DNA of 35,538 nucleotides from contig JANQHR010000164.1 of NCBI GenBank assembly GCA_028282585.1, positions 1 to 35,538 of the forward strand, written 5' to 3'. Shown piece after piece: positions 1 through 18,960 of the stretch. The notes beneath the pieces are model-generated. The model was not told the DNA's origin. It searched no databases and saw only the letters and a list, made by a program, of their open reading frames with translations. A program made the translations under genes and the position numbers. The DNA is from Bacteroidales bacterium (GTDB taxonomy: Bacteria; Bacteroidota; Bacteroidia; Bacteroidales; UBA12077). The number at the start of each line of letters is the position of its first letter. The stretch's first letter is position 1.

Positions 1-355
1 ACAATAAACGATTCTCAATACGATAGTATTTAAAAGAAGTTGGAGCAATTTGAGTAAATACTAAAGATGCAAATTGATGATTATAATGAAAACCCTGATT
101 TATTGGGTGGAAAACTTGGTGTTGCCTTGTAGTTTTTCTAATATGCTAGACTTATAAATAAGCAAGAACTATATGATTATGGTTTAGAGCTAATGTATTT
201 GATTTTGAAGATATAAATAAATCATATACATAGTGTCGGACTAGCAGTTATATGATCTTTAAAAGAAGAAGATTAGGAGCTATTTTTATGTATTATTGAA
301 TAGGCTTTTGACAAAATAACGATTACAGGAAATTTTAACCTATGATTTTTATATA
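1..355 (+). pseudogene. lanC: Degraded lanC (lanthionine cyclase) N-terminal relic
   Basis: Frame +1 from 28 reads I*KKLEQFE*ILKMQIDDYNENPDLLGGKLGVAL*FF*YARLINKQELYDYGLE. It aligns without gaps to LanC2 (IEKKIIRFEEILRSNKESYAQSQGLMGGTIGIALYFLYYAKLMDKQEPYDIGLE), 26/54 identities by hand count. Further patches: HIHSVGLAVI*S vs HTHAGGLAGIGS, LKEED vs LREDD, AFDK vs ALDK, and YDF near 341-349. Multiple stops and frameshifts. Confidence 0.85.
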
Positions 356-491: not shown

Positions 492-1304
492 TTATACAAA
501 AAATTTATTAAGTAGGTTTTTAAACAATTTACTATCCGGATACTTCACTATAGCAACTTGCAGTATTGCCAATGCATCAAATCTACATTCGTTTTCTAAA
601 AATATGAAAAACAGAAATAAATAGTCCATTTTATTATTTAATGGATATGCAGATATTATTCGAATTTCTTCTTCTGGAAGTAACCTGAAATATCCTTTAG
701 CGCTATTACTTCCATTATATAACCTCCATGTATATGATTTGTCGTGTTCAAAAATTGAATTATTAAAATCAGGTTCATAAATAGGGAATTTTAACGTCAA
801 AATTAAAGAGTCATTATCTTTATGAAATATATATAATTTTGCATCTGGAATAAAATCCCCGACTGTATAGAATTTTATATTGGTTTTGTCATAAACATTT
901 GATTCCAACGGGTAAATTGTGAAACTGCTTCTTTCGTTGTTATATAGGTTAGGAAGATAAAAAGAAGGCCTGTTTATAAATTTTGAGATTTTATTTAAAG
1001 TTGAAATTCTAATCCCTGTTATTTCCAGGCTTGTATCAGTTTTTATCTCAATTTTTTCTCCCGCATAAAGAATGGTTTCATTTCCATTTGTATCTATTAG
1101 GCTAAGCTTTCCTTCTTGAATCTCAATTCGATGATTATTTGTATAAACCTGTAGTGAATCTAATTTTCTTTTTTCTCCGTTAACTCTTATAATGGTATGT
1201 TCCTCAAGAGGTAATAAAAGAACGGAATAATTAAATGTTTTTTGAGCTTTAAGCGAAATGAACGAAAAAAGAATAAATACGCTGATTATAACAGATTTTC
1301 TCAT
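492..1304 (-). CDS. Secreted hypothetical protein, DUF928-like C-terminal region
   Basis: 270 aa ORF with SPI signal peptide ending SLKA|Q. The C-terminal YTWRL...GYFRLL...FLENECRFDALAILQVAIVKYPDSKLFKNLL resembles the DUF928 pattern (YxW...G.iR...WYDAL..L.....P......LL). Family call by eye. Confidence 0.6.
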   Translation of the reverse strand: MRKSVIISVFILFSFISLKAQKTFNYSVLLLPLEEHTIIRVNGEKRKLDSLQVYTNNHRIEIQEGKLSLIDTNGNETILYAGEKIEIKTDTSLEITGIRISTLNKISKFINRPSFYLPNLYNNERSSFTIYPLESNVYDKTNIKFYTVGDFIPDAKLYIFHKDNDSLILTLKFPIYEPDFNNSIFEHDKSYTWRLYNGSNSAKGYFRLLPEEEIRIISAYPLNNKMDYLFLFFIFLENECRFDALAILQVAIVKYPDSKLFKNLLNKFFV

Positions 1305-1312
1305 AAAAAAAA

Positions 1313-1320
1313 TAGTTTTG
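1313..1320 (+). promoter_or_regulatory. Bacteroidota sigma-A -7 element upstream of the histidine kinase
   Basis: TAGTTTTG matches TAnnTTTG, 32 nt before the GTG start, in a 48-bp divergent intergenic region. Confidence 0.45.
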
Positions 1321-1352
1321 TAAAACGAAGGTATGAATTTAAGTACTAAAAG

Positions 1353-3176
1353 GTGAAAAAAAGGCTTTTTTTTATAATACTGGTAATATTAATTGGTTTA
1401 TTCATAATTTTTTATTTTACCATATTTTTTGGAAATCAAGTAAGAATAAATTACGACGAATCAGATAAGAATTATGAGAACGCATACAAGTATTTAGAAC
1501 TAGGCGAATATCTAAAGGCTTATGAGTTTGCTATGTCTTCATATTTAATTGAAAAACAAGGCAAAGAAGGTAAAAGGTATGCAGGGGCTCTTAATTTACT
1601 AGGAAATATATATGAAAAAACCGGCCTTTATATAAAAGCTTTGGAAATGCATTATGAATCTCTTGAAATACAAAAGATTCATTACAATGAAAGGGGCATA
1701 GCAAATTCGTACCACAATATAGCTCATTTAAATATGATTGCAGGAAGGTATGATAATGCATATAACTTTTATAGAAAAGCACAGGAAATTTATGAGAATC
1801 TTCAAGGCGATTCTTTAGATTTAATGGAGAATAGAAAAAATCTTGTTAAGATTTATTTGTCAATGGGGAACTATTTTATTACTCAAAAGGATTCAACTCA
1901 AGCGTTTATTTATTTAAAGAAAGCCTTGGTCTTAAGTAAAAAAGATAATGACAGGTTAAATATTGCACAATCTTTTTTGTATTTAGGGAATTGTTATTTT
2001 CAGTGCAATGATTATTTATCAGCTAAGGATTATTATTTGAAATCATTGGAGTTGAATATCGAAGAAAAAAACAGGATTGGCATAATTGTTAACAAAATAA
2101 ACGTAGGAAGGATTTATTATTTATCAAATAGAATAAATGAGTCCATTAATGCTTTAAACTACGCTTTAGATATTGCGGCACAGGTTAATGCAGGAAAACA
2201 AATAGCAGAAGCTTCGGAATTGTTATATTCAATATATTCCGGGATGCCTGATTCTATCGAACAAACAAAAAAATATGCAGCAGTATTTTTAGATTCAAAA
2301 AAATACCTGCCAAATGAGGCTATTCAGGACTCAATCATTCAAAAATCAATAAAATATGAAGTAATATCTAAAAAAAATGAAGAAATTTTAATAGAAAAAT
2401 ATAAAAGGAAAATTACTATAGTATTATTTATTGGTTTGTTAATTGCGTTTGTAATTGGTGCTTGGTTAATTTATGATCGCAATAGGTTAAAACAACAAGC
2501 TTTATATACGAAAAAAATGTCAAATGAAAAACTACTTCGTTACAGGGAGGTATTTAGTGCGATTGAACAAGAGAGAAAAAGAATAGCCGTAGACCTTCAT
2601 GATAGTTTGGGCCAGACGTTAACGGCAACCAGGTTAAGTTTTTCCGGATTAGAGGATTTATTAAGGTTACAGGGAGAGAACGGTAGAAAAAAATATAAGG
2701 ATACAATTGACTTGTTAGATATGTCAAGCAATGAGCTTCGGAATATTTCATTTAATATTATGCCGGGTACTTTGATTAAATTTGGATTAAAGTCTGCTGT
2801 TGAAGAAATAATTCATAGAATCAAAAATAATAATGAGGTTGAGGTTAATTTTAAATCAATTGGATTTGATGAACCCGCTGGTGAAGGGCCGGAAATAATA
2901 ATTTACAGAATAATTCAGGAAATATTGAATAACATACTAAAACATGCACATGCAACGATTATAAATATATATCTCGGAAAAGAACTTAATACGGTAAATC
3001 TAACAATTGAAGATAATGGTGTTGGTATGGAAGATTTTGAGAAACACAAAAATAAGGGTTTAGGTTGGAAGAGTATTTTTTCAAGAGTAGAAATGTTAAA
3101 CGGAAATATAAAAATTAAAACTGAGCTTGATAAAGGAACAAAAATTGATGTAATATTCACTAGTAACAATCTTTAA
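1353..3176 (+). CDS. Membrane sensor histidine kinase with extracytoplasmic TPR repeats (HisKA_3 + HATPase_c)
   Basis: N-terminal TM helix, several TPR-like repeats (ALNLLGNIY, SYHNIAHL, YLSMGNYF, FLYLGNCY, INVGRIY) and a second TM (ITIVLFIGLLIAFVIGAWLIY). H-box ERKRIAVDLHDSLGQ, N-box QEILNNILKHA, G1 DNGVG, G2 GLG. Confidence 0.93.
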   Translation: MKKRLFFIILVILIGLFIIFYFTIFFGNQVRINYDESDKNYENAYKYLELGEYLKAYEFAMSSYLIEKQGKEGKRYAGALNLLGNIYEKTGLYIKALEMHYESLEIQKIHYNERGIANSYHNIAHLNMIAGRYDNAYNFYRKAQEIYENLQGDSLDLMENRKNLVKIYLSMGNYFITQKDSTQAFIYLKKALVLSKKDNDRLNIAQSFLYLGNCYFQCNDYLSAKDYYLKSLELNIEEKNRIGIIVNKINVGRIYYLSNRINESINALNYALDIAAQVNAGKQIAEASELLYSIYSGMPDSIEQTKKYAAVFLDSKKYLPNEAIQDSIIQKSIKYEVISKKNEEILIEKYKRKITIVLFIGLLIAFVIGAWLIYDRNRLKQQALYTKKMSNEKLLRYREVFSAIEQERKRIAVDLHDSLGQTLTATRLSFSGLEDLLRLQGENGRKKYKDTIDLLDMSSNELRNISFNIMPGTLIKFGLKSAVEEIIHRIKNNNEVEVNFKSIGFDEPAGEGPEIIIYRIIQEILNNILKHAHATIINIYLGKELNTVNLTIEDNGVGMEDFEKHKNKGLGWKSIFSRVEMLNGNIKIKTELDKGTKIDVIFTSNNL

Positions 3177-3186
3177 TGAAAATATT

Positions 3187-3855
3187 ATGAATGTTGATAA
3201 TAAGATAAAAGCTATGTTAGTTGACGACCATCCAGTTGTTCTAAACGGCTTAAAGAATTTGATTCATGATATAGGCACTGTTGAAATTATTGCAGAAGCT
3301 TCTAATGGTAAAAATGCACTTGATATTCTTGAAAAATATAGTATTGATATAGTTATTACAGACATAAACATGCCGGAGATGGATGGTATTGAATTAACGA
3401 GAAACGTTAAAAAAAGATATCCTCATACTAAAGTACTTATACTTACAGCGTATAATGAACGGGAAATATTGAAAAGGGCATTTAGCTCTGGAGCAGAGGC
3501 CTGTATATTAAAAAATACGAGTAAAAAAGAGTTGTTAGAGGCGATAAATAAAATTATTGATAATGGATATTATTATTGTGATGAAATACTATCCATAGCG
3601 AGGGGAATACATAAATGTTTTGAGTCGAACATAGAACAACCCGTAATATTAAGCCCTCGTGAATTGGAAGTTTTAGAATTAATACTTCATGGGTTTTCAA
3701 ATAAAGAGATTGCTAATAAGTTAAATATAAGTTTCCACACCGTAAGCTCACACAGGAAAAATACAATGAAAAAAACAGGAAGCCACAACGTATCCGGTTT
3801 GTTCAGTTATGTTCAAAAATTCAATTTATTCCCTGCACTTTTCGAGGAAAACTAA
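3187..3855 (+). CDS. NarL/FixJ (LuxR-HTH) family response regulator
   Basis: Receiver motifs VDDH, TDINMPEMDG, LT, LK. C-terminal LSPRELEVL...SNKEIA..LNIS.HTV..HRKN. Starts 10 bp after the kinase. Confidence 0.95.
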   Translation: MNVDNKIKAMLVDDHPVVLNGLKNLIHDIGTVEIIAEASNGKNALDILEKYSIDIVITDINMPEMDGIELTRNVKKRYPHTKVLILTAYNEREILKRAFSSGAEACILKNTSKKELLEAINKIIDNGYYYCDEILSIARGIHKCFESNIEQPVILSPRELEVLELILHGFSNKEIANKLNISFHTVSSHRKNTMKKTGSHNVSGLFSYVQKFNLFPALFEEN

Positions 3856-3890
3856 CCAAAATAAGTTAGTACCTTTCAAATAAATTAAGG

Positions 3891-6800
3891 CTAACTTCCA
3901 ACTAACAACCATGCACCCCAGTATTTAGGCGAAGCAGTTTTGGGATTTTTTATTAATGCCAGTTTAGCTTTCCTTAGTGCTTCCGTATAGCTTTTTCCAT
4001 CAAGTATATTTTTGTAAAACTGAATCATTAAATCTTTAGTCTGTTCGTCTTGAACATCCCATAATGAAAATACAATATTTGGAACGCCAGAATATAAAAA
4101 CCCTCTGGATAAAGAAAGAAAACCTTCTCCCAGAATTAACTTTCCTAAACCACTTTTACATGAACTTAAGACCAGGAGGTTTGCATTTGATAAATTCAAA
4201 TTATATGTTTCTCCAGCATATAAAATCCCATCTTCATCATTTAAATCATTCATTTTATTGGTATCTGGTTGTGAAAATGCAATTCCTGATAAATTTGGGT
4301 ATAAGTCATTTGTAAAACTATGGCTGGCGATATGAATTAATTTATACTTTTCAATATTTTTTTTAAAGTTCTCTTCACTTGCTTCTTTATGAAAAAAACC
4401 TTTTGCTTCTTTTTTTTGGTTATGATATAATTGCACGATTGATTTTACCTCACTTTCGGAAAACTCAAGTGGATTCAGGTATGTAAAATCATTACTTACC
4501 GAACGGGTTGCCGATTCTATGCCGGTTGTATCAGCAATCCAATCACTTGAAACAATAAATCCATTATTTATTTTTGGGTCAAAGACCGGGGCAAAACCAA
4601 TAAAGTTATTTTCCGTGGCAATCTGGTTCTGTTCTTTCTCTTTGCTGTTCAACCATAATGTAGCAGTATGATGATAAGAGATAGAATAATCCTTTATTAA
4701 GAAATTTAATTTGGTTAAATCTTTTGTATAAATATCTTTTTTACACAAGGTTTCGAAAGGAACATAATATAAACTGCCATCTGGCACAACAACCAGATTG
4801 TTTTTCCCTTCCAGGTATTCTTCTAAGGGTTCTATCAAATAATTGTAGAGGTATGTACTGTTTTTTAGTTCTTTCTCAGCAAAATCAGATTTAATATCAA
4901 GGTAATAATTCATGACTTTTTCATTAAACAGGCTGTCGGTTTTAATGGTTTTTATTGTGTGGTTCTTATTAGTAACCAAACTAATAAATAAGTTGGTATC
5001 ACCAACAAAATAATTAATTAAAACTGAATTTTTGTCGAGTTTTTTTTGAATATCTGCTATTTGAGCTACTTCTTGTTTATACTTTAAGTTAAAATAATCG
5101 GGATAATCATTCTTGATTACGTTAATCAGGCTATCATACTGAATTGAGTAATTAAGTAACCTATCCTGGTAATTTTGGGCCAAAAGAGTGTCGTAGCCAT
5201 CTCTTTGGGCTTTTAAGCGTTGAATTTTTGTTTCAAATTTGCGCCTGTTTTGGGTGATATCTTTTTCCTTTTGCTGCAAAGAATCGGACACGTTCCAGTA
5301 TTGCTTGATTTTCAGGTCATTCAAATAAATACTTAAAGTAGCGCTTTTGGATTTTTCTATAAACTCAAAGGCTTTTTCCAAATTATCATTATTGGCATCT
5401 TTTTTATATAACTCCAAAGCGACTTCCATAGCTTCTTCGTACATATACTTTTTAGTTTTACTAAGAAGTAATTGAGAATTTTCGTGACTGTAATCTGTAC
5501 GAATTTTATGAATTAAATTAGAAGCTAAATCGTATGTTAACAACGAAGCGCGTAAATCAATCATTGCATCACTTTCGTTTTTGTATAGTCGGAAAAATGC
5601 TTGTGCTTTACCCCTTAAGGTTCGATATAACTCAGGAGCAGAGAGTGCATTAAAATGATTTGGGTTATTGTATATATTAGAATCGTTAAAATCAATTAGA
5701 TTTGCCATCAATGCTTCTTGATAATAATTTAATGTTGACTTAAAATCTTTTTCGGCATCGCTAATTAAGGTCATCTTATTATAAGCGTCGGCCAGGTAAG
5801 GATGGTAACTTCCATAAATATGCTTTCTAATTTCCAGCGTTTTTTGAAAATATTTTAATGCATTTTCATAATCCTTTTTGTGCGAATAAATGATTCCAAT
5901 GTTAGTATATAGTTTTGCAACGGTATGATGTTTTTCTCCATTAGTTTGTATTCTAATCTGTAAAGCTTTATTGTACGATTCAAGGGCTTTGTCATAATCT
6001 TTTCTAAAATTATATATTACACCAATGTTAGTATAATTATTGGCTACATTAGGGTGGTTTTCTCCATAAATTGATATGGATAACTTTAAAGCTTTTTCAT
6101 TATATTCCGATGCTTTTTCATAATTGTATATATTACGGTATGCAGCTGCCATATTAGTATAGCAAATTAATGCAATGTTGTTTTTTTCATTTGCACTAAT
6201 ATCTAAAGCTTTATGATAATATTCTAAAGCTTTAATATAATCGCCCATGTAAAAATATGCAAGCCCTAAACTAATATAACTTTTTGCTAAATCAGGGTGG
6301 TTTTTTTCTAATACCAGCAGTCTTATAGTTAAAGATTCCTGATAATATTTTTGTGCTTTACTATAATCTCCTTTAAACAAATAAATAGCTCCGATATTCA
6401 TATAATTAGTTCCCACATTCGGATGGTTTTTGCCGAAAATGTGATTAGTCTGTTCTAATGATTTTGTTAAATATTCAAGCGCTTTGTCATAATTACCTTT
6501 ATATCTATATAATACTCCAATGCTATTATAGGTTTTGGCCACTTTAGGGTGATATTCTTCATGTGATTGAATAGCAATATTTAAAGACCTGTTATAATAT
6601 TCTAATGCTTTGTCATATAATCCTTTGACTTGATATAGTAGTCCGAGGTTCAATAAAGGGGCTATTAAGTCAATATGATTATTTCCCAATAGTTCTTGAT
6701 ATGCTTCTAATGATTTTGTATAGTATTCAAGCCCTTTATCATATTTATTTAAGCGATAATATATGTAACCTTTATTATTCCATATCTTTGCTTTTTTTAG

Positions 6801-7256
6801 TTTTGATATACTGTCATCTCGTGTAATCATAGTAAGAGCACTTTGATAAGATTGAAGCCCTTCTTCGTAACTACTTAATTTTTCATATATAACTCCTTGC
6901 TCAATAAGATTTTCAACTTGTTCATAGTTTTCATGTTTGGTATTTCCTAAAATGTGCTTTTGTGATAATTCAATAGCTATTTGGATGATCGTTAAAGCAG
7001 AATCGGGAATGAAAGCCAGGTTTAAAGATTTAGCTGCTAATCGATAATTCTTTACCGTATTTAACCAATCTTTTTGCTGATTATAACCTTTTGCAGACAT
7101 CGTAAAATAATTAGCAGCACTGTCATATTTAAATGTATCGTAAAAGTTTTTAGCCTTTTGTTCCCAATTGTGAACGTTAATACTATCTGCCTGCTGGCTG
7201 TAGATTAAACCTATATTTAAGGTTATACATAAGGAAAATGTAACAAGTAATTTCAT
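3891..7256 (-). CDS. Secreted TPR-repeat CHAT-domain (caspase-like, clan CD) protease
   Basis: Signal peptide (…LIYS|QQ) and about 10 TPR-like repeats. CHAT motifs: LYNYLIEP, VVPDGSLYYVPFETL, HIASHS (His codon 4320-4322), DGILYAGE, LVLSSCKSG (Cys codon 4158-4160), SLWDVQD, ALRKAK, PKYWGAWLLVG. Confidence 0.93.
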   Translation of the reverse strand: MKLLVTFSLCITLNIGLIYSQQADSINVHNWEQKAKNFYDTFKYDSAANYFTMSAKGYNQQKDWLNTVKNYRLAAKSLNLAFIPDSALTIIQIAIELSQKHILGNTKHENYEQVENLIEQGVIYEKLSSYEEGLQSYQSALTMITRDDSISKLKKAKIWNNKGYIYYRLNKYDKGLEYYTKSLEAYQELLGNNHIDLIAPLLNLGLLYQVKGLYDKALEYYNRSLNIAIQSHEEYHPKVAKTYNSIGVLYRYKGNYDKALEYLTKSLEQTNHIFGKNHPNVGTNYMNIGAIYLFKGDYSKAQKYYQESLTIRLLVLEKNHPDLAKSYISLGLAYFYMGDYIKALEYYHKALDISANEKNNIALICYTNMAAAYRNIYNYEKASEYNEKALKLSISIYGENHPNVANNYTNIGVIYNFRKDYDKALESYNKALQIRIQTNGEKHHTVAKLYTNIGIIYSHKKDYENALKYFQKTLEIRKHIYGSYHPYLADAYNKMTLISDAEKDFKSTLNYYQEALMANLIDFNDSNIYNNPNHFNALSAPELYRTLRGKAQAFFRLYKNESDAMIDLRASLLTYDLASNLIHKIRTDYSHENSQLLLSKTKKYMYEEAMEVALELYKKDANNDNLEKAFEFIEKSKSATLSIYLNDLKIKQYWNVSDSLQQKEKDITQNRRKFETKIQRLKAQRDGYDTLLAQNYQDRLLNYSIQYDSLINVIKNDYPDYFNLKYKQEVAQIADIQKKLDKNSVLINYFVGDTNLFISLVTNKNHTIKTIKTDSLFNEKVMNYYLDIKSDFAEKELKNSTYLYNYLIEPLEEYLEGKNNLVVVPDGSLYYVPFETLCKKDIYTKDLTKLNFLIKDYSISYHHTATLWLNSKEKEQNQIATENNFIGFAPVFDPKINNGFIVSSDWIADTTGIESATRSVSNDFTYLNPLEFSESEVKSIVQLYHNQKKEAKGFFHKEASEENFKKNIEKYKLIHIASHSFTNDLYPNLSGIAFSQPDTNKMNDLNDEDGILYAGETYNLNLSNANLLVLSSCKSGLGKLILGEGFLSLSRGFLYSGVPNIVFSLWDVQDEQTKDLMIQFYKNILDGKSYTEALRKAKLALIKNPKTASPKYWGAWLLVGS
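5700..6800 (-). repeat. Tandem ~42-aa TPR repeats (kinesin-light-chain-like) inside the CHAT protein
   Basis: Recurrent HPx(V/L)AxxYxN(I/L)GxxYxxxGxYxKALEYxxxSL units, e.g. EYHPKVAKTYNSIG, KNHPNVGTNYMNIG, KNHPDLAKSYISLG, ENHPNVANNYTNIG, EKHHTVAKLYTNIG. Boundaries approximate. Confidence 0.85.
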
Positions 7257-7282
7257 GTAAAATCAATTTATTAAATTCTATA

Positions 7283-7321
7283 TCCCATAATCAGGTGATC
7301 AAAAATACACCTTAAAGGGGA
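7283..7321. promoter_or_regulatory. Two candidate NarL-like 7-2-7 sites flanking a minus-strand -7 element for the CHAT gene
   Basis: TCCCATA-at-CAGGTGA (7283-7298) and TACACCT-ta-AAGGGGA (7306-7321), both imperfect inverted repeats. CAAAAATA (7300-7307) reads TATTTTTG on the minus strand. Confidence 0.3.
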
Positions 7322-7442
7322 TTGTTTTAAAAAAACACAAGTTATAACATTGTTAAATAATTTCAATAGTTATTAAACCAAACTAAAGTATAAATCTAGA
7401 ACAGATTTTTAAAATGATAAATATCCTTAACAAAAATATATT

Positions 7443-7484
7443 AACCCTATGGCGGATACCGAAAAGCCATTAAAAGAGTAGGTA
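7443..7484 (+). ncRNA. Candidate small structured RNA element upstream of the precursor gene
   Basis: GC-rich island in AT-rich DNA: CCTA…TAGG closing helix, ATGGC…GCCAT helix and an internal GG-ATA-CC. Reminiscent, from memory only, of the Bacteroidota Flavo-1 motif; not verified. Confidence 0.3.
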
Positions 7485-7507
7485 CTTATTTTTTAATTAA
7501 AATTATT

Positions 7508-7702
7508 ATGAAAAAGAAAGATTTATCAGGAAAGCTTAACCTAAACAAGATTAAGATTTCAAAACTTCAAGCATCAGGAATTAAAGGAGGGTGGATATCA
7601 CATTCTTTATCACCTAATGTTACACAACCATTGTGTGAAACTGATGAGTATAATACATGCCAATGTAATAGTGTGTATTGTACAGATGCAACTTGCCCGT
7701 AA
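7508..7702 (+). CDS. lanA: Class I lanthipeptide precursor (LxLxKx5L leader, double-glycine cleavage site)
   Basis: Leader MKKKDLSGKLNLNKIKISKLQASGIKGG (28 aa). Core WISHSLSPNVTQPLCETDEYNTCQCNSVYCTDATCP (36 aa; 5 Cys, 4 Ser, 5 Thr). Directly upstream of lanC. Confidence 0.93.
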   Translation: MKKKDLSGKLNLNKIKISKLQASGIKGGWISHSLSPNVTQPLCETDEYNTCQCNSVYCTDATCP

Positions 7703-7713
7703 ATATTGAAATT

Positions 7714-7780
7714 AAAAGCTGCCTTAAGGGCTAACTTATAATAGCTATTGATATTTTAAGCTAATTAAGGCAGCTTTTTT
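7714..7780 (+). terminator. Long stem-loop / intrinsic terminator after lanA
   Basis: Perfect 14-bp inverted repeat AAAAGCTGCCTTAA (7714-7727) / TTAAGGCAGCTTTT (7765-7778), with a central palindrome AATAGCTATT and a trailing T-run. Confidence 0.75.
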
Positions 7781-7844
7781 GCCTTGTATTGATTTTGGCA
7801 AACATAGAGTTAAAGTATATACATTTTGCTATTATTAAATTAGA

Positions 7845-9050: not shown

Positions 9051-9160
9051 TTTGTAGGCGTTATATAGTTGTTTTAAATAAAAAGTGTGCATTTTTTGTC
9101 CAAAAATAACGGGCTAAATCATCCATAAAGTTGGTATTTATAAATTTTAATCAAAATACG

Positions 9161-9215
9161 TTTAACGAAAGAAACCAAAATAACTACGAAAATGGCAAAA
9201 AAACTTACGAAATCA
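9161..9215 (+). promoter_or_regulatory. Three ACGAAA direct repeats at exact 21-bp period (candidate LytTR-type operator)
   Basis: ACGAAA starts at 9165, 9186 and 9207 in the 362-bp lanC1-lanC2 spacer. Confidence 0.5.
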
Positions 9216-9369
9216 ACTTTGTTTGTCAAAAGAAACCAAGTGCATTTAATAGTTTAAATTGATTATAGATCCGATTTTTTATATTTAAAAAATGAAAAGT
9301 AGGTTGTCAATAATAGTTAGATGAAATGTCAAGGTTCGTAAAAAATTGTTTAAATGAGATATTAACAGG

Positions 9370-9395
9370 AGCTAGTAAATTGTATTAGCTTTTTT
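9370..9395 (+). terminator. Weak hairpin plus T-tract just upstream of lanC2
   Basis: AGCTAGTA-aattg-TATTAGCT (one G-U pair) followed by TTTTT, ending 17 nt before the ATG. Confidence 0.35.
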
Positions 9396-9412
9396 ATTTA
9401 AAATAATTCGAA

Positions 9413-10633
9413 ATGGCTTGGAGTGATGTAATGCCAAAAGGCAAAAAACAGGAAATCGAAAAAAAAATAATTCGGTTCGAAGAAATTTTAAGATCTAATA
9501 AAGAATCGTACGCACAATCACAAGGTTTAATGGGTGGCACCATAGGTATTGCACTTTATTTCCTTTATTATGCTAAGTTGATGGATAAACAGGAACCCTA
9601 TGATATTGGCCTTGAAACATTAGAATCCGTATTCGAATCTATTAATAATGGTTTTAATTACCATACACATGCTGGCGGATTGGCAGGTATAGGATCTGTG
9701 ATTGAACTTTTAAGGGAAGATGATTTGATTGAACTGGATTCTAACGATACTTTAGGTGCTTTGGATAAACATCTTTATAAAATGATGATGCATGAAATAA
9801 AAAATAAGAATTATGACTTTTTACATGGAGCCGTTGGAATTGGGTACTATTTTATAAGAAGAAAATCAAATAAAAGCTATAAAATCTATTTAACTGACCT
9901 TATTGAAGAATTAGATAAAAATTCAACAAAGGATGAAGAAGGTATTAGGTGGTTGTCAGTATTGGACAAAGAAAAAAAAACAAAAGGATTTAACCTGAGC
10001 TTATCTCACGGTTTAGCAAGTATTATAGTTTTTTTGAGTAAGGTATACAAAGAAGGTATTGCAAAAGAGAAAACATTAATATTGCTGCAAGGTGCAGTAA
10101 AATACCTTATTAATCAAAAATTGGATACTTCAAAGCACAAATCAAATTTTCCTTCTTGGGTTTGCGAAGGCGAACCTTCAATGTATAGTCGAATGGCCTG
10201 GTGTTACGGAGATTTAGGTATAGGAATTGCTTTATGGCTTGCTGCTGAAAATACAACTAATGAGGAATGGAAGAATAAAGCAGTCGAAATATTGTTACAT
10301 ACAACAAAGCGAAAAACAGCGAAAGAAACTGGGGTTGTAGATGCAGGTTTATGTCACGGAACAGCAGGAATTGCACATATTTATAATCGAATGTATAACT
10401 TTACAAATCGAAATGAATTTAAAGAATCAGCAGTATATTGGTTTAATAAAACCTTAGAATTAAACATCTATAATGATACTTTATCAGGTTATAAAGCTCA
10501 TCGAAGCGAAAAATATGGTGGTTCATATGAAGATTTCGGATTCTTGGAAGGAATTGCAGGAATTGGATTAGCTTTTATTTCAGCAATTTCTAATATTGAA
10601 CCTGTTTGGGATGAAACACTATTTCTAAGTTAA
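9413..10633 (+). CDS. lanC: Lanthionine synthetase / cyclase LanC (copy 2)
   Basis: YDFLHG, LSLSHG, MAWCYG, LCHG, GFLEGIAGIG, WDETLFLS. All catalytic and Zn-binding residues appear present. Confidence 0.95.
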   Translation: MAWSDVMPKGKKQEIEKKIIRFEEILRSNKESYAQSQGLMGGTIGIALYFLYYAKLMDKQEPYDIGLETLESVFESINNGFNYHTHAGGLAGIGSVIELLREDDLIELDSNDTLGALDKHLYKMMMHEIKNKNYDFLHGAVGIGYYFIRRKSNKSYKIYLTDLIEELDKNSTKDEEGIRWLSVLDKEKKTKGFNLSLSHGLASIIVFLSKVYKEGIAKEKTLILLQGAVKYLINQKLDTSKHKSNFPSWVCEGEPSMYSRMAWCYGDLGIGIALWLAAENTTNEEWKNKAVEILLHTTKRKTAKETGVVDAGLCHGTAGIAHIYNRMYNFTNRNEFKESAVYWFNKTLELNIYNDTLSGYKAHRSEKYGGSYEDFGFLEGIAGIGLAFISAISNIEPVWDETLFLS

Positions 10634-10638
10634 AATAT

Positions 10639-12873
10639 ATGAAGGAAAACACGCGTTATAAACCCTTTGATAAATTTGTTCTTAGAACTCCTTTAAAGCC
10701 ATTTAGTTATTTACAGGAACTATTTTCAGATTCGGATAGTAACATTGAAAGTATTAAAAAGGAATTACAGAACCCAATTATTAAAGAGTCTATTTTTCTT
10801 GCATCTCCTGATTTTTTTGAACAGCTAAATGCCTGGTTAAATGGTAAAGAATTGGTCAAAAAGGATTTGGACCGTTTATTATATTCAGTAACAAAATACT
10901 TAAGCAGGTTATCATCTCGAAGCACACCATTTGGATTATTTGCGGGTGTTTCAATCGGTCGATTCTCCGGTAATAATCAAATTAATATTCCTGATTTATC
11001 CGAATACAAGCGAAAGCTACGTCTGGATATGAATTATACCGTTGCTCTTGCAATTCATTTATCTAATATTACTGAAATTAAAAAACAAATCAGGTTTTAT
11101 CCGAATACAAGTAAATATATTTCCGGAAATCAAATACGCTATGTTGAGTACAGTTATAGAAATGCAAAAAGAGTGCATCATATAGCTGCAGTAGATAATA
11201 CAGAATACCTTCAAAAAGTATTAAATAAAGCAGAATCAGGAAAGCATATAGAAGATTTGGTCAAAATTTTAGTTGATGATGAGGTTACATATGAAGAAGC
11301 TGAATATTTTATCAATGAATTAATCGACAATCAAATTTTGATTTCAGAACTTGAGCCATCTGTATCAGGCGATGATTTATTAGTTCAGACTATTAATATT
11401 TTAGAAAATCTTGAAAAAATAGATGAAATAGTAACAAAGCTTAAACATATTAAATCTGATATTGATAATATTAATTCACTTCCCCTAGGCATTGATATAT
11501 CAAAATATTTTGAACTAATTGAGAAGATAAAAGCATTGGGAGTTGATTTTCAATTGAAATTTTTATTTCAGGTTGATATGGCAAAACCTGTTAAAGAAAT
11601 TCAAATAAGTAACAACATTCCTAATAATATCTTAAAGGCTTTAAATATTCTTAACAGGATATCACCGAAACCAAGTGAAACTAACTTGACAAAGTTCAAA
11701 GATTCTTTTTATGAAAGATATGAAGATGCTGAAGTACCATTATTACATGCCTTAGATACAGAGACCGGAATCGGATATCTTGATAATAAATCAGGTGCAG
11801 GAATACCTTCACCACTTGTTGATGAGTTAAACTTACCGTCCCGAGTTGGGGATTCTTATAAAATGAATTGGGATTCTTACAACTCATTTATTCTTAAAAA
11901 ATACCTTCAAGCTATTAAGAATGGTGATTCTGAAATCGAAATTATTGATTCGGAAATTGAAAAAATTACTCAAGAACCAGATTGGACAGATTTGCCAAAA
12001 ACAATGTCGGCAATGGTCCAGTTATTTAAACGTGATGATGAAGACCTGGTTTATATAAAAAATTGCGGTGGGTCAAGTGCAGCAAATTTATTAGGAAGAT
12101 TTGCGTATACAGATGAAACTATAAATGATTTTGTTCAGGAAATAGCTGATTATGAACAAAGTATTGAATCAGAAAAAATACTTGCAGAAATAGTTCATTT
12201 ACCTGAATCAAGAACAGGTAATGTGCTATTGCGTCCGATTATTCGAAAATATGAAATACCTTATTTGGCAAAATCTAATATTGACGAGAGGCTTCAAATA
12301 AATCCGGACGATTTAGTGATTTCGATAAAAAGAAATAGGTTAGTTCTTCGTTCTAAAAAACTTAATAAAGAAATTATACCCCATTTAAGTAATGCTCATA
12401 ATTTTTCTTATAATGCATTACCGGTGTATCAGTTTTTATGCGATTTACAAACTTATAATTTACGTGGAGGAATTGGATTTACTTGGGGTTCATTGCAAAA
12501 TGAATTTGAGTATTTACCCCGAGTAAGATATGGAAATGTAATTTTTTCTTTAGCTGAGTGGAGAATTAAACAAGAGGATTTTGAAAAAATTGTAAAACTT
12601 GAGAATGACGAAAGTTTACGAGCTAAATTTAGAACGTGGCGAAATAATTTAAGCATCCCTTCTTGGGTTTCATTAGTTGATGGAGATAATAAACTAACAC
12701 TAAATCTGGATAATGTTTTATGCATTAAAACTTTAATATCATTGGTTAAAAAGAGATCAGGTTTTACACTTACGGAATATTACTTAAATAAAGAAAATGC
12801 ATTTATCAAAGATAACAACGATATATACGCAAACGAATTTATTTTTGCTTTCAAAATAAGTCAACAACAATAG
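10639..12873 (+). CDS. lanB: Lantibiotic dehydratase, glutamylation domain (N-terminal half of split LanB)
   Basis: FVLRTP, IFLASP, RSTPFGLFAG, LLGRF, RTGNV, YLPRVRYG..IFSLAEW, GDNKLTL. 744 aa and lacks the elimination domain. Confidence 0.95.
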   Translation: MKENTRYKPFDKFVLRTPLKPFSYLQELFSDSDSNIESIKKELQNPIIKESIFLASPDFFEQLNAWLNGKELVKKDLDRLLYSVTKYLSRLSSRSTPFGLFAGVSIGRFSGNNQINIPDLSEYKRKLRLDMNYTVALAIHLSNITEIKKQIRFYPNTSKYISGNQIRYVEYSYRNAKRVHHIAAVDNTEYLQKVLNKAESGKHIEDLVKILVDDEVTYEEAEYFINELIDNQILISELEPSVSGDDLLVQTINILENLEKIDEIVTKLKHIKSDIDNINSLPLGIDISKYFELIEKIKALGVDFQLKFLFQVDMAKPVKEIQISNNIPNNILKALNILNRISPKPSETNLTKFKDSFYERYEDAEVPLLHALDTETGIGYLDNKSGAGIPSPLVDELNLPSRVGDSYKMNWDSYNSFILKKYLQAIKNGDSEIEIIDSEIEKITQEPDWTDLPKTMSAMVQLFKRDDEDLVYIKNCGGSSAANLLGRFAYTDETINDFVQEIADYEQSIESEKILAEIVHLPESRTGNVLLRPIIRKYEIPYLAKSNIDERLQINPDDLVISIKRNRLVLRSKKLNKEIIPHLSNAHNFSYNALPVYQFLCDLQTYNLRGGIGFTWGSLQNEFEYLPRVRYGNVIFSLAEWRIKQEDFEKIVKLENDESLRAKFRTWRNNLSIPSWVSLVDGDNKLTLNLDNVLCIKTLISLVKKRSGFTLTEYYLNKENAFIKDNNDIYANEFIFAFKISQQQ

Positions 12874-12878
12874 AAGAT

Positions 12879-13772
12879 ATGCAAAGGAAATTTATAATAG
12901 GAGATGAATGGTTATATTATAAGATTTATTGTGGTCCAAAAACAGCAGATGAGATTTTAATAACTATTATAAATCCGGTACAAAAAGAACTAAAAAAAAA
13001 TCAAATTATTGATAAATGGTTTTTTATTAGATATAATGACCCTAATCCACATATTAGGGTGAGATTTCATTATAATAAACCAGAAAATGTATCCATAATT
13101 ATTAACGCTATAAATCAACAATTAAAGCCATTAATAGAAAAAGATATTGTTAACAAAATACTAATTGATACATATAACAGGGAACTTGAGAGGTATGGCG
13201 CAAATACTATAGAATTAACCGAAAGCTTATTTGCGTTTGATAGTGAAATGATTGTAGAATTTTTAGATATGATTGAGGGTGATGAAGGAGAAGTAATTCG
13301 CTGGTTATTTGGTATGAGAGCTGTTGATTCTTTATTAACAAGTTTTTCTTATAATGAGGAAGGAAAATTATTAATAACGGAAGGCCTTAAAGAAGGATTT
13401 GGAAGAGAATTCGGTATGAATAAAATGCTAAAACTTCAGTTAGATAGTAAGTTCAGAAGTGAAAGGAAATTGATAAATGATTTTTTTGCAAATAAGTATG
13501 GAGATGAAGATATTTCAGAATTAATAGATGTTATAAATCTTAAATCAAAAAAAATTAAACCTATTGTAAATAGTATATTAGAATTGAAAAAAGAAAGTAA
13601 ACTCGAACGTTCTTTAAATGATTTTATGGGGAGTTATATTCATATGTTATTGAATAGGCTTTTTAAAACAAAACAACGTCTTCATGAAATGGTAATTTAT
13701 GATTTTCTTTTTAGATATTATAAATCAGAAATTGCAAAGAAAAAATATAAGCCTAAAGCTAAAACTGCCTGA
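12879..13772 (+). CDS. lanB: Lantibiotic dehydratase, glutamate-elimination domain (C-terminal half of split LanB)
   Basis: EWLYYKIY, WFFIRYNDP.PHIRVRF, YNRELERYG, F..DS, SYIHMLLNRL. Has its own ATG 5 bp after the preceding stop, in a different frame. Confidence 0.93.
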   Translation: MQRKFIIGDEWLYYKIYCGPKTADEILITIINPVQKELKKNQIIDKWFFIRYNDPNPHIRVRFHYNKPENVSIIINAINQQLKPLIEKDIVNKILIDTYNRELERYGANTIELTESLFAFDSEMIVEFLDMIEGDEGEVIRWLFGMRAVDSLLTSFSYNEEGKLLITEGLKEGFGREFGMNKMLKLQLDSKFRSERKLINDFFANKYGDEDISELIDVINLKSKKIKPIVNSILELKKESKLERSLNDFMGSYIHMLLNRLFKTKQRLHEMVIYDFLFRYYKSEIAKKKYKPKAKTA

Positions 13773-13840
13773 TAATCAAATTATATTTTCACTTTTCACT
13801 TTAAATACCTATTTTAGAAATCTAATTAAATTAATAATAA

Positions 13841-16042
13841 ATGTCTTTCCCTTTCTATAAACAACTTGATGCAATGGACTGTGGCCCTACCAGTCTTAGA
13901 ATGATTGCCAAGTATTACGGTAAAACTTACTCTCTACAAACTTTACGTGATAAAAGTTATATAACACGCGAAGGAGTTTCAATGTTAGGAATAAGTGATG
14001 CGGCTGAGGCTATTGGTTTTCGGTCAATGGGAGTACGAATTTCTTTTGAACAGCTCATTGCAGAAGCTCCATTACCTTGTATTGCTCACTGGAATCAGAA
14101 TCATTTTGTTGTTGTTTATGATATTAAGAAAAAAAGAAATGGTGATTACATAGTTTATGTTTCTGATCCTGCTCGTGGACTAATAAAGTTTACAAAAGAG
14201 GAGTTTATGAAAGGTTGGGCAAATACAAAAGAAGGAGGAGAAGAAAAGGGTTTGTGTTTACTTTTGGAAACTACGCCTGATTTTTATGCAGCAGAGGATG
14301 AAAAAATAAATAAGTCAGGATTTAGATTTTTGTTTTCTTATTTACGACCGTTTAAAAAGATTATAACCCAGCTTTTTCTTGGTTTACTTGTTGGAAGTTT
14401 ATTACAATTAATTTTCCCGTTTTTGACTCAAAGTATAGTCGACAAAGGTATTAATACACAAGACTTAAACTTTGTAACTTTAATCATAGTTGCTCAACTG
14501 GTACTAATATTTTCCAGAACAATAGTTGAATTTATTCGAAGTTGGATTTTACTGCATGTTGGAACACGAATTAATATATCCTTGATCTCAGATTTTTTAA
14601 TCAAGTTGATGAAGCTTCCGGTAGCCTTTTTTGATACCAAAATGATTGGTGATTTAATTCAACGCATAGGAGACCATAAGCGTATTGAAGATTTTTTAAC
14701 ATCATCAACATTAAATATACTTTTCTCTTTTATTACACTTGTAATTTTTGGTATTGTTCTCTTGGTATATAATGTTAATGTATTTATCATCTTCTTATTT
14801 GGTAGTGCACTTTATACTTTATGGGTGTATTTATTCATGAAAAAGCGTCGTGAATTAGATAATAGAAGGTTTGCTCAATTATCTGATAATCAAAGCAATG
14901 TTATTCAATTAATAACCGGAATGCAGGAAATAAAGCTGAATAATTGTGAGAAACAAAAACGTTGGGAATGGGAGAGTATACAGGCAAAGCTTTTTAAAGT
15001 TAATATGGCTAGTTTATCATTAAATCAATACCAACAAGCTGGCGGTGTTTTTATTAACGAAGTTAAAAATGTGATTATAACTTTTATTGTCGCAAAAGCG
15101 GTTATAGATGGTAGCATGACTTTGGGTATGATGTTAGCTGTGCAATATATTATTGGACAGTTAAACAGTCCAATTAATCAGATGATCAGCTTCTTACAAT
15201 CAACGCAAGATGCAAAAATAAGTTTGGAGAGATTAGGTGAAATACATGGTAAAGAAAACGAGGAATCTGAAGAATATCCTAAAGTAGATATTTTACCTGA
15301 GCAAAGAGATTTAAATATTGATAAAGTGTATTTTCAATATGAGGGACCACATTCTCCTTTTGTATTAGATGATGTTGAGCTTAATATCCCGGGAAAAAAA
15401 ATAACAGCAATTGTAGGAACAAGTGGAAGCGGAAAAACTACATTAATTAAATTACTTCTTGGATTTTATAATCCTACAAAAGGGAAAATTACACTTGGTG
15501 ATTTATATCTCGATAATTTAAGTAATAGAATTTGGAGAGATAAATGTGGAGTTGTTATGCAAGATGGTTTTATTTTCTCTGATTCAATAGCAAACAACAT
15601 TACGGTTTCAGATGAATATCCGGATAGGGAAAGTCTATTGAGAGCAGTAAAAGTTGCTAATATACAAGATTATATTGAGTCATTACCACTAGGTTACAAT
15701 ACAAAAATTGGACAGAATGGTGTTGGGTTAAGTCAGGGTCAAAAGCAACGGATATTAATTGCAAGAGCCGTTTATAAAAATCCGGAGTTTATATTTTTCG
15801 ATGAGGCAACTAATGCTTTGGATGCAAATAATGAAAAAATAATAATGAAGAATCTTGATGATTTTTTCAAAGGTAAAACAGTTGTTGTGGTTGCACACAG
15901 ATTAAGTACTGTAAAAAATGCTGACCAAATAGTTGTATTAGAGAAAGGAAAAATTGTTGAGGTTGGAAATCACTCAGAGCTTTCAAAGAAAAAGGGTGCA
16001 TACTACGAACTTGTTAAAAATCAACTTGAGTTAGGTAATTAG
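13841..16042 (+). CDS. lanT: Peptidase-containing ABC transporter (C39 peptidase + TMD + NBD), LanT/PCAT
   Basis: QLDAMDCG (catalytic Cys), HWNQNHFVV (His), DPA (Asp). Walker A GTSGSGKT, signature LSQGQKQR, Walker B FFDEAT, AHRL. Confidence 0.96.
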   Translation: MSFPFYKQLDAMDCGPTSLRMIAKYYGKTYSLQTLRDKSYITREGVSMLGISDAAEAIGFRSMGVRISFEQLIAEAPLPCIAHWNQNHFVVVYDIKKKRNGDYIVYVSDPARGLIKFTKEEFMKGWANTKEGGEEKGLCLLLETTPDFYAAEDEKINKSGFRFLFSYLRPFKKIITQLFLGLLVGSLLQLIFPFLTQSIVDKGINTQDLNFVTLIIVAQLVLIFSRTIVEFIRSWILLHVGTRINISLISDFLIKLMKLPVAFFDTKMIGDLIQRIGDHKRIEDFLTSSTLNILFSFITLVIFGIVLLVYNVNVFIIFLFGSALYTLWVYLFMKKRRELDNRRFAQLSDNQSNVIQLITGMQEIKLNNCEKQKRWEWESIQAKLFKVNMASLSLNQYQQAGGVFINEVKNVIITFIVAKAVIDGSMTLGMMLAVQYIIGQLNSPINQMISFLQSTQDAKISLERLGEIHGKENEESEEYPKVDILPEQRDLNIDKVYFQYEGPHSPFVLDDVELNIPGKKITAIVGTSGSGKTTLIKLLLGFYNPTKGKITLGDLYLDNLSNRIWRDKCGVVMQDGFIFSDSIANNITVSDEYPDRESLLRAVKVANIQDYIESLPLGYNTKIGQNGVGLSQGQKQRILIARAVYKNPEFIFFDEATNALDANNEKIIMKNLDDFFKGKTVVVVAHRLSTVKNADQIVVLEKGKIVEVGNHSELSKKKGAYYELVKNQLELGN

Positions 16043-16044
16043 TT

Positions 16045-17370
16045 ATGGAAATTACAAGAGATGAAATAGAAAAAATTGAACTTCGAACAAATGAGGTTCA
16101 AGAAATATTAAATCGACCGCCAAAATGGATAGTAAGATGGGGTATTACCATTGTATTTGTAGTAGTTGCAATTATTATAATTAGTAGTTGGTTTTTTAAG
16201 TATCCGGATATTATTTCAGCAAGAGTAATTTTAACAACAGAAAATCCCCCCGCGCCTGTAATTGCAAAAGTTTCCGGTAGAATTCAAAGTTTACTGGTTG
16301 TTGATAATGAAATGGTTATACAAGGTCAGGTTGTCGGGATTATGGAAAATCCCGGGGCCTATGAATCCGTTAATTCACTATCTGATCAAATTGAAAAATT
16401 TGAATTAAATTTTGCTGAAGGAAAAACTTATACCTTAGGTAAAACCATTTTAAACTTAGGTGAAATTCAGTCTTACTATGCAAGTTTTTTCAAATATATT
16501 GATGAATACAACAATTTCATTCAACTAGATTATCATAATAGAAAAATTAGCCAGTATAAAAATGAATTGGTAAAATATGATTTATACCTGACCAATTTAA
16601 AAAGTCAGAGTAATATTCTAAAGCAAGAGTACCTATTGACAAAAAAGCAGTTTTTACGTGATTCAACCTTGTATTTACAGGAATTGATGTCTGAAGCAGA
16701 TTTTGATATTTCTGAATCAAATTTGTTAACTAAGTCATACAACTATGAACAAAATAACATTTCTATAACTAATGTTGAAATACAGGTAGAATCATTAAAA
16801 CAAAGTATATTAGAATTGGAACTTCAACGGAAAAGTCAGGCAAATACTTTAGTAAACCAAATACGGGAGTCTTATAAAAATCTTGACCTGGCTATTCAGA
16901 ACTGGAATTATAAATATGTTTTAAAAACTTCTACAAATGGAATTGTTACATTTAATAAATTCTGGAATGAAAATCAAAATGTAAAAGTTAATGAAACTGT
17001 TTTAACAATTATCCCGCAAGATGAAGGGGATATTATAGGGAAGGTTCAGTTAAATTTCCAGGGAGCCGGGAAAGTTAAGGTTGGACAAAAAGTTAATATT
17101 CAATTTGCTAATTACCCATACATGGAATTTGGCATGGTTAAGGGTATTGTGAATTCGATTTCCTTAGCTCCTAACGATGAATTTTATACAGCTGAGATTG
17201 GATTACCTGATGGGTTAATAACTTTTTATGGTGAAACATTAGAGTTTAAACAAGAGATGCAGGGTTCAGCAGAGATCATTACCGAAGATAAACGATTATT
17301 GGAGCGAATAATAAGACCTCTTAGATACGTACTTAATAGAAATACAAATATTGAAAGAATTAAAAACTAG
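16045..17370 (+). CDS. HlyD-family membrane fusion (periplasmic adaptor) protein
   Basis: N-terminal TM after EVQEILNRPPKWIVRWG, a long coiled coil, and GKVKVGQKV…YPYMEFGMVKG. Follows the ABC exporter by 2 bp. Confidence 0.93.
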   Translation: MEITRDEIEKIELRTNEVQEILNRPPKWIVRWGITIVFVVVAIIIISSWFFKYPDIISARVILTTENPPAPVIAKVSGRIQSLLVVDNEMVIQGQVVGIMENPGAYESVNSLSDQIEKFELNFAEGKTYTLGKTILNLGEIQSYYASFFKYIDEYNNFIQLDYHNRKISQYKNELVKYDLYLTNLKSQSNILKQEYLLTKKQFLRDSTLYLQELMSEADFDISESNLLTKSYNYEQNNISITNVEIQVESLKQSILELELQRKSQANTLVNQIRESYKNLDLAIQNWNYKYVLKTSTNGIVTFNKFWNENQNVKVNETVLTIIPQDEGDIIGKVQLNFQGAGKVKVGQKVNIQFANYPYMEFGMVKGIVNSISLAPNDEFYTAEIGLPDGLITFYGETLEFKQEMQGSAEIITEDKRLLERIIRPLRYVLNRNTNIERIKN

Positions 17371-18948: not shown

Positions 18949-18960
18949 ATTTATAATGAT

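Follow-up and report, generated by a model that had tools for sequence, protein, structure and literature searches.

A four-gene cassette with a TPR-CHAT protease and a two-component system beside a Bacteroidales lanthipeptide operon, and its pairing with GG-leader peptide genes

The cassette, the spacer and the lanthipeptide operon

In this report, we focus on a contig of a Bacteroidales bacterium (JANQHR010000164.1), hereafter the window, which is complete at 35,538 bp and belongs to an assembly of 173 contigs and 4.89 Mb with 32% G+C. It carries, side by side, a cassette of four genes (492-7256) and a lanthipeptide (lan) operon (7508-17370). The cassette encodes a protein of 270 amino acids (aa), a sensor histidine kinase that combines tetratricopeptide repeats (TPR) with a HisKA_3 core, a NarL/LuxR-type response regulator and a TPR-CHAT caspase-like protease. 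The list, order and orientations of the genes over 492-17370, as given in a preliminary description made from the letters alone, were all confirmed with open reading frames (ORFs) and Pfam (Table 1). Our observations across the order support a tie of the protease and of the cassette to genes for exported peptides with a double-glycine (GG) leader, and not to lanthipeptides as such. We put at about one half (0.5) the probability that the cassette is a regulatory or sensing device of the GG-leader peptide locus next to it.

The TPR array of the kinase is flanked by hydrophobic segments (residues ~1-30 and 350-376), and it is therefore placed in the periplasm. The kinase has 13 orthologues with 45-71% identity, H416 is invariant in the aligned set (13-14 sequences), and its core is closest to the LiaS-like kinases of the HisKA_3 envelope-stress type. 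Its gene lies 10 bp from that of the regulator, and the two have the make-up of a NarL/LuxR-type two-component system, for which phosphotransfer is predicted. Both the TPR-CHAT protein and the 270-aa protein start with an N-terminus that, judged from sequence only, resembles a signal peptide. Together with the hydrophobic segments of the kinase, this agrees with the extracytoplasmic location first proposed for the TPR arrays of kinase and protease. The protease belongs to the CHAT family (PF12770) by its domain and by its catalytic His and Cys: all 49 aligned CHAT proteins share H979 and C1033, which are assigned as the catalytic dyad following the family description and what PMC11506125 says of the dyad. 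The window protein is probably an active protease. Such proteins abound in the order, as CHAT was found in 219 of its 401 genomes (~460 matches), and nearly all the TPR-CHAT proteins sampled there have signal-peptide-like N-termini.

Other identities were considered for these proteins and set aside. A defence system was rejected, as PADLOC returned nothing but generic TPR matches for the proteins of the cassette. The same generic matches, the signal peptide and neighbouring genes (Table 1) with no Cas partner among them separate the protease from Csx29 of the type III-E CRISPR craspase, a cytoplasmic protein encoded with gRAMP/Cas7-11 and a CRISPR array. It is not a DdvA-type anti-sigma factor either, having a signal-peptide-like N-terminus, no other domain and a two-component system as neighbour, where that type has a zinc anti-sigma domain in the cytoplasm at its N-terminus, a transmembrane helix before TPR-CHAT and its cognate ECF sigma gene next door.

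The CHAT gene and lanA stand head-to-head across a spacer of 251 bp (7257-7507), just as originally described. This spacer holds an imperfect palindrome, which we consider a candidate operator (Table 1). The palindrome is kept in both CHAT-lanA spacers of a relative of the same genus, G016 (L006 8905-8946 and 12830-12871), a shorter one occupies the same place in the spacer of another genome, G341, and, of the spacers compared, those without CHAT do not have it. Its folding as RNA is no better than that of shuffled sequences (z -1.48); an RNA hairpin is thus not supported, and a protein-binding site is favored. Regulators of the NarL family commonly bind inverted repeats. A genome-wide search with a loose pattern gave many chance matches and no second site with the extended arms of the palindrome. 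Closer to lanA, a conserved block aligns between the window and both spacers of G016. It is also found upstream of lanA in G008, a relative of the same genus that does not have the cassette, so that it belongs to the lan operon. A sigma-70 promoter scan was uninformative (53 sites found against a shuffle mean of 52), Bacteroidetes promoters lying outside what that scan covers.

Table 1. Features of the window and of the second CHAT locus of the same genome (E, expectation value; TM, transmembrane segment; PCAT, C39 peptidase-ABC exporter)
Position	Strand	Feature	Evidence or remark
34-273	+	Decayed lanC fragment (pseudogene relic), left end of contig	tblastn with LanC2 residues 17-104, 41% identity, E 2e-14, several in-frame stops
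492-1304	-	270-aa exported protein ("p270")	No Pfam/NCBIfam match; rare Bacteroidota family
1353-3176	+	Sensor histidine kinase: TM, TPR array, TM, HisKA_3, HATPase_c	Pfam
3187-3855	+	NarL/LuxR-family response regulator (receiver and GerE helix-turn-helix)	Response_reg E 4.3e-30; GerE E 4.7e-18
3891-7256	-	TPR-CHAT caspase-like protease, 1121 aa	CHAT E 5.8e-57 and TPR families
7282-7322	.	Imperfect palindrome, candidate operator	26-66 nt upstream of the CHAT start codon
7451-7483	+	Conserved block before lanA (promoter or 5' leader element)	Conserved in alignment with both L006 spacers
7508-7702	+	lanA precursor, 64 aa	Translation; 28-aa leader, 36-aa core
7714-7786	+	Hairpin then U-run 3' of lanA, terminator- or attenuator-like	-27.3 kcal/mol, z -2.49; terminator-like site at 7766-7786
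7845-9050	+	LanC cyclase 1	LANC_like E 5e-46
9413-10633	+	LanC cyclase 2	LANC_like E 2.1e-48; 38-40% identity to LanC1
10639-12873	+	Split LanB, glutamylation part	Lant_dehydr_N E 1.2e-158
12879-13772	+	Split LanB, elimination part	Lant_dehydr_C E 4.2e-74; TIGR03891 E 7.1e-73
13841-16042	+	LanT, C39 peptidase-ABC exporter (PCAT)	Peptidase_C39 E 2.4e-33, ABC_membrane, ABC_tran
16045-17370	+	HlyD-type membrane fusion protein	HlyD_3; TIGR01843 E 3.4e-25, under cut-off
C108:19495-25923 (L009 4496-10925)		Second CHAT locus: ECF sigma, three unnamed or TPR genes, TPR-CHAT	

The lan genes have the LanB, LanC and precursor of class I lanthipeptide clusters of the Bacteroidetes type, and by this content 7508-17370 is an intact operon of a known and ordinary kind, with a predicted thioether product. 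In the translation of lanA, the leader bears the LxLxKx5L motif and has GG at its end, and the core contains 5 Cys and 9 Ser/Thr; the match to the class I leader model NF038153 is weak (20.5 bits, cut-off 22). Cys and Cys-His motifs, which we take to be the zinc ligands, are visible in the translations of both LanC. The two lanC genes are separated by a non-coding gap of 362 bp (9051-9412) that has no similarity to any protein of the cluster. The C39 domain of LanT accounts for leader removal, as had been proposed. A relic of lanC had also been reported at 1-355 on the far side of the cassette; it is real, and shorter than that (Table 1).

Pairing of TPR-CHAT with GG-leader peptide genes

The complete four-gene cassette, with the same order and orientation, is found three times, in the window, in G016 (contig C161) and in G341 (contig C108), and it adjoins a GG-leader peptide locus each time. 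In G016, the synteny of cassette and lan genes is kept, at 50-68% protein identity, and there is no lanC relic. The bracketing of the cassette by lanC sequences, on which the preliminary description insisted, is thus true of the window genome, where the contig starts at the relic, and not of this syntenic relative. In G341, where the identity is of 36-66%, there are no lan enzymes: a C39-VKOR gene faces CHAT, and after it comes a gene for a Cys-rich GG-leader peptide, of the disulfide type.

In G016, the CHAT-lanA pair is duplicated. There are two CHAT genes in tandem, each opposite a lanA-like gene of its own; a fragment of the regulator gene lies between the two copies, the same palindrome is present in each spacer, and four more Cys-rich GG-leader genes follow just past the 270-aa gene. 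The CHAT paralogues differ mainly in their TPR region, where non-synonymous divergence (dN) reaches 0.33 as against 0.04 in the CHAT domain, and their arrays differ by ~88 residues. The ratio of dN to synonymous divergence (dS) is 0.53 in the TPR region and 0.17 in the CHAT domain; being below 1, it does not support positive selection on the TPR region.

The window genome itself holds further loci of this kind. Its sole other CHAT gene, on contig C108 of its assembly (Table 1), encodes a protein of 916 aa and faces two near-identical GG-leader peptide genes with cores of 11-12 residues, acidic and Cys-free; it is flanked by a gene for a sigma factor of the extracytoplasmic function (ECF) type. 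On the same contig (C108:64746-66006, L008), a Cys-rich GG-leader peptide gene follows a decayed pair made of a 270-aa gene (43% identical, two stops) and of kinase fragments 57-67% identical to the window kinase. On another contig (C151:4433-6921), a Cys-rich GG-leader gene lies 560 bp downstream of the gene for a TPR-HisKA kinase that is lipoprotein-like and has its TPR array in the periplasm. The same assembly also contains, near a contig end (C123:1862-2026), an orphan lanA-like gene whose leader has the form LxLxKx5L...GG and, on a contig of 2 kb (C114:377-2029), a LanC-like frame of 408 aa, after which comes another that resembles the N-terminus of C39-VKOR. It may hold still other peptide loci broken across contigs.

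How general this pairing is was assessed on a sample of 40 TPR-CHAT genes with high scores, taken in 38 other genomes of the order out of the ~460 CHAT matches. A divergent GG-leader ORF lies within ~430 bp of 4 of the 40, and one of these four loci continues with a PCAT gene, whose product is 56-62% identical to the window LanT, and then HlyD. By chance, ~0.02 such pairings would be expected in 40 upstream windows, a rough figure, since the ORF density of a single genome (11 non-nested GG-leader ORFs in the 4.89 Mb of the window genome) was used for all. In a quick tree, the pairings fall in two separate CHAT clades: all four members of the cassette clade are paired, as are 5 of the 13 in the second clade, in which the CHAT genes otherwise adjoin ECF sigma genes.

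The 270-aa protein has no Pfam match even at E 10 and none in NCBIfam. A profile search of 1.84 billion representative proteins gave 58 related clusters at E <= 0.001, and its nearest clusters in the Protein Atlas are unnamed Bacteroidota families. The AlphaFold2 model (pLDDT 91.4) has two beta-sandwich domains and C-terminal helical hairpins; a Foldseek search with it was uninformative, returning only generic matches to tandem Ig/FN3 domains with TM scores of ~0.2. The name DUF928-like, under which the protein was first described, is weakly borne out: PF06051 (DUF928) is matched weakly by 13 of 49 relatives (best E 4.6e-4), and we do not assign the window protein to that family. The model finds nothing in the 401 genomes of the order, and it is also silent in 14 control genomes, so that this does not amount to absence.

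The family is rare and patchy: it occurs in 1 of 36 further genomes of the genus, in 2 of the 56 genomes of the taxonomic family and, by a profile, in 7 of the 401 genomes of the order. We analyzed 12 solid loci, leaving out two weak profile matches, G405:C21 (E 4e-8), whose ORF carries a sorting domain of the type IX secretion system (T9SS), and G126:C1 (E 4e-6), which has no TPR neighbour. A scan of the genome contigs for more loci returned two, both already known, and a metagenome scan for further loci of the family found none. When the metagenomes were scanned with the kinase alignment, 43 loci came out, all with distant kinases (23-37% identity), and they were not used. The gene next door encodes a signalling protein with periplasmic TPR in 11 of the 12 loci: a TPR kinase with a HisKA_3 or HisKA core in eight (one of them a decayed pair), a TPR-SpoIIE phosphatase in one and TPR-CHAT in two more. 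In the remaining locus, the neighbour is a Sel1-repeat gene, with a C14 caspase two genes off. CHAT is present within 6 of the 12 loci, and lan enzymes within 2. It is thus the TPR sensor, and not a lan gene, that constantly accompanies the 270-aa protein, and the protein is likely a partner of periplasmic TPR sensors, for which it would name a new partner family.

Complex prediction for the 270-aa protein and the kinase ectodomain gave a score of 0.57, against 0.00 for the best of three controls. The mark applied is reached by 58 of 80 solved complexes and by 2 of 110 mismatched pairs, and the scores that lie above it without exceeding 0.60 come from only 7 of the 80 solved complexes and from both of the passing mismatches. 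The runs share at least 62% of their contacts, with a partner pLDDT of at least 70. This lends weak support, from modelling, to an association of the 270-aa protein with the kinase ectodomain.

Some loci of this family have a composition of their own. In two genomes of one genus (L025, G132:C30; L026, G259:C1; ~5883-11837), the genes for a regulator, a TPR-HisKA kinase and a 270-aa-family protein directly adjoin pfs, which encodes the methylthioadenosine/S-adenosylhomocysteine (MTA/SAH) nucleosidase, and luxS, the two forming the autoinducer-2 synthesis pair. In L027 (G341:C21, 7492-11783), the genes for a 270-aa-family protein, an unnamed 253-aa protein and a Peptidase_C14 protein share one strand, with a Sel1-repeat gene facing the first of these; a lanA-like GG-leader gene lies 8.4 kb away (18776-19000). 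Elsewhere in the window (21431-23829), the gene for a DNA photolyase diverges from that of a MerR regulator with a B12-binding domain, which has the architecture of a CarH-like light sensor.

Possible roles of the cassette

The recurrence of the pairing makes the GG-leader peptides the best candidates for the signal, the substrate or the regulated output of the cassette. If the cassette is the regulatory or sensing device of its neighbour, the lanthipeptide would be exported and its leader removed by the C39-ABC/HlyD system; the kinase ectodomain and the 270-aa protein would sense the peptide once exported, or what it does to the envelope; and the NarL-type regulator would act on the conserved palindrome of the spacer, driving both divergent promoters. 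TPR-CHAT would be the peptide-specific periplasmic component, either receptor or protease; it is the TPR array, and not the protease domain, that differs between the copies paired with different peptides. Who binds whom, in which direction the signal travels and what CHAT cleaves are what we infer here. By their gene neighbourhoods, the TPR-CHAT proteins of the order belong to predicted trans-envelope signalling systems, in which they are accompanied by a two-component system or else by an ECF sigma factor.

Several observations weigh against a sensing device devoted to the peptide. Both of the lan-linked cassettes come from one genus and may share ancestry, in which case they are not independent. 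The dS of the G016 paralogues is also higher in the TPR region (0.63 versus 0.24), so that the contrast may stem in part from gene conversion or a mosaic origin, as opposed to a divergence of specificity. No GG-leader gene faces 36 of the 40 sampled TPR-CHAT genes, and the palindrome of the spacer was not found upstream of the 270-aa or kinase genes. The 270-aa family is rare (7 of 401 genomes, two of them weak matches) whereas CHAT is common (219 of 401), and its loci are mostly free of peptide genes: a GG-leader ORF was found by pattern in 5 of the 12, once at 8.4 kb. In the reverse direction, we examined 39 lanB loci, taken from 37 genomes of the order other than that of the window; 26 were full stretches of 20 kb, the rest were ended by the contig, and none has a match to CHAT, to the 270-aa protein or to the HisKA_3 core in the stretch fetched.

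This last result also bears on how far the lanthipeptides themselves are concerned. The preliminary description had proposed a lanthipeptide-linked signalling system and had set a neighbourhood survey beforehand among its refuting tests. With 0 of 39 lanB loci carrying the module and 2 of 12 loci of the 270-aa family carrying lan enzymes, a lanthipeptide-specific system is refuted by that description's own criterion. G008 adds to this: it has an orthologous lan cluster (LanC 60%, C39 79% and HlyD 65% identical), and two TPR proteins, a HisKA protein and three LytTR proteins stand upstream of lanA where the cassette sits in the window, which fits a predicted swappable regulatory slot. What survives of the proposal is the tie between module and peptide, through the co-duplication of CHAT and lanA, the kept synteny, the third cassette and the second clade. 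The ordered circuit that it put forward, from the peptide over CHAT, the 270-aa protein, the kinase and the regulator to the promoter, is a hypothetical mechanism.

The lan loci surveyed also showed particularities in their own right. In the cluster of G008 (L079, G008:C1, 6118-8832), lanC and lanB have between them a gene of 904 aa, with matches of the MG2/MG4 macroglobulin and TonB-plug-like kinds. In two other clusters, 11 and 7 tandem precursor genes occupy that same site (L095, G259:C71, 5591-8535; L096, G132:C116, 6896-8694), encoding a common leader followed by very different Cys-rich cores.

A bolder extension of the sensing reading, which we consider rather unlikely, is that the exported TPR-CHAT proteins of Bacteroidales are receptors of cognate GG-leader peptides. 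The peptide, lodged in the TPR groove, would switch the protease, which would relay the signal by cleavage to the two-component system (through the 270-aa partner or the kinase ectodomain) or, in the other clade, to an ECF sigma/anti-sigma pair. Were this true, it would amount to a proteolytic peptide-sensing pathway, akin to quorum or kin sensing and undescribed in Gram-negative bacteria, for which lanthipeptides, disulfide peptides and short acidic peptides would be alternative signals.

The cassette could instead serve self-protection, an explanation that we find doubtful: CHAT would capture the re-entering cognate peptide with its TPR array and cleave it, and the two-component system would induce CHAT, in the manner of lantibiotic immunity or resistance proteins. 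A Pfam scan of the window ORFs recognized no immunity gene in the lan operon, CHAT is exported with an intact dyad, and the kinase core is nearest to the LiaS-like, envelope-stress type, all of which would suit this role. The lanA-like genes of G016, each with its own CHAT copy and these copies differing mainly in the TPR array, would suit it as well, such a one-to-one pattern being typical of bacteriocin-immunity pairs. However, the peptides paired with the second clade have short, acidic, Cys-free cores that do not resemble antimicrobials; CHAT is divergent from lanA, whereas a bacteriocin gene and its immunity gene usually share a transcript; and in the 39 other lan loci, none of which carries CHAT, immunity must come from something else.

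We regard as unlikely that the two systems have no functional coupling at all, the cassette being an independent envelope-sensing unit that landed there by rearrangement or transfer, in variable genomic islands that it shares with GG-leader genes. Its patchy occurrence in the family and in the order would fit this, and the lanC relic on its far side suggests rearrangement. There are also lan loci elsewhere without the cassette and several loci of the 270-aa family without a nearby peptide gene, for instance beside pfs-luxS or MacB-type permeases. Against this, the head-to-head pairing recurs in two CHAT clades and with three types of peptide, the duplication took CHAT and lanA together with the palindrome of the spacer conserved, and the four pairings observed stand far above the chance expectation. 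Lastly, a second step of maturation, in which CHAT would trim or activate the exported peptide after the C39 cut at GG, is very unlikely: two-step leader removal by extracellular proteases is known for some lanthipeptides, and an exported protease with an intact dyad is encoded beside the precursor gene, with its copies paired to individual precursors, but C39 alone accounts for leader removal, none of the 39 other lan loci needs such an enzyme, and the constant company of a two-component system or ECF sigma factor would be left unexplained.

Comparison with known systems

Two-component systems of the NisRK/SpaRK type auto-induce the lantibiotics beside which they are encoded. As in the window, a kinase-regulator pair lies beside the lanA promoter, and the sensing of the exported peptide may work alike. 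The window differs from them by the periplasmic TPR array and HisKA_3 core of its kinase, by its NarL/LuxR regulator, by two extra periplasmic proteins and by its Gram-negative host, and we do not claim that it belongs with them. In cyanobacteria, DUF928 proteins adjoin CHAT genes, so that there too a small exported protein is encoded beside a CHAT protease.

To our knowledge, very little has been learned about how the Bacteroidota regulate, sense or guard against the ribosomal peptides that they make, few products having been isolated and no circuit worked out. We likewise know of no function for the exported TPR-CHAT proteins that are so common in the order, and of a single characterized periplasmic one, DdvA of Myxococcus xanthus. 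The pairing described here offers a candidate ligand or substrate for these proteases and a candidate regulator or guardian for the GG-leader peptides. In the main texts of the papers surveyed, supplementary tables aside, we found no report linking the CHAT domain to lanthipeptides, bacteriocins, peptides made by ribosomes and modified after translation (RiPPs) or quorum sensing and no paper joining it with DUF928, and TPR-CHAT is associated with the periplasm only in the DdvA study. The lan cluster is thus of a known type, while the cassette and the CHAT-peptide pairing appear to be undescribed.

Among lan clusters, the nearest are those of the pinensin type of Walker et al. 2020 (PMC7268733), whose account, for the part bearing on Bacteroidetes class I precursors, gives an LxLxKx5L leader ending in GG, C39 proteases and a split LanB. 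The split LanB, LanC, this leader and the cluster-encoded C39 are common to the window, which differs by its two LanC genes and lanC relic and by a TPR-CHAT/270-aa/HisKA_3 cassette that is present in none of the 39 comparison loci; LanB itself was found in 38 of the 401 genomes of the order. A survey of Bacteroidales RiPPs lists TPR, kinase and regulator genes in some clusters and, in the sections concerned, no CHAT (PMC10352776). The bacteroidetocins (class IIf; Coyne et al. 2019, PMC6671954) are, in the portion of that paper on their loci, GG-leader peptides with four Cys and a thiol oxidoreductase in the locus. They resemble, by description and not by sequence, the C39-VKOR and Cys-rich peptide of G341 and those Cys-rich GG-leader peptides whose genes adjoin the 270-aa ones; the text of the paper never mentions a TPR protein or a histidine kinase.

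Among proteases, separase with securin and craspase associate a TPR-like arm with a caspase-like protease under allosteric or pseudosubstrate control, at least in the outline given by PMC11506125. In both, a helical-repeat arm is joined to a CHAT-type protease that is inactive until its partner binds, a likeness to the window protein by architecture only. The small, unstructured and acidic peptides of the second clade recall a pseudosubstrate partner, which is a lead only. Separase and craspase are cytoplasmic, and the window locus has no Cas or cohesin-like partners. Of the characterized systems, the one that comes nearest is DdvA-DdvS of M. xanthus, in which, as far as the relevant part of PMC11506125 goes, DdvA is an anti-sigma factor and a periplasmic TPR-CHAT sensor with a His-Cys dyad, its signal being an unknown protein or peptide. 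There, as we propose here, a periplasmic TPR-CHAT protein takes part in trans-envelope signalling, and the CHAT genes of the second clade are likewise flanked by ECF sigma genes. The window protein differs from DdvA in being a free exported protein with a signal peptide and without an anti-sigma domain or membrane anchor, its partner is a two-component system, and its neighbours are peptide genes and not defence islands.

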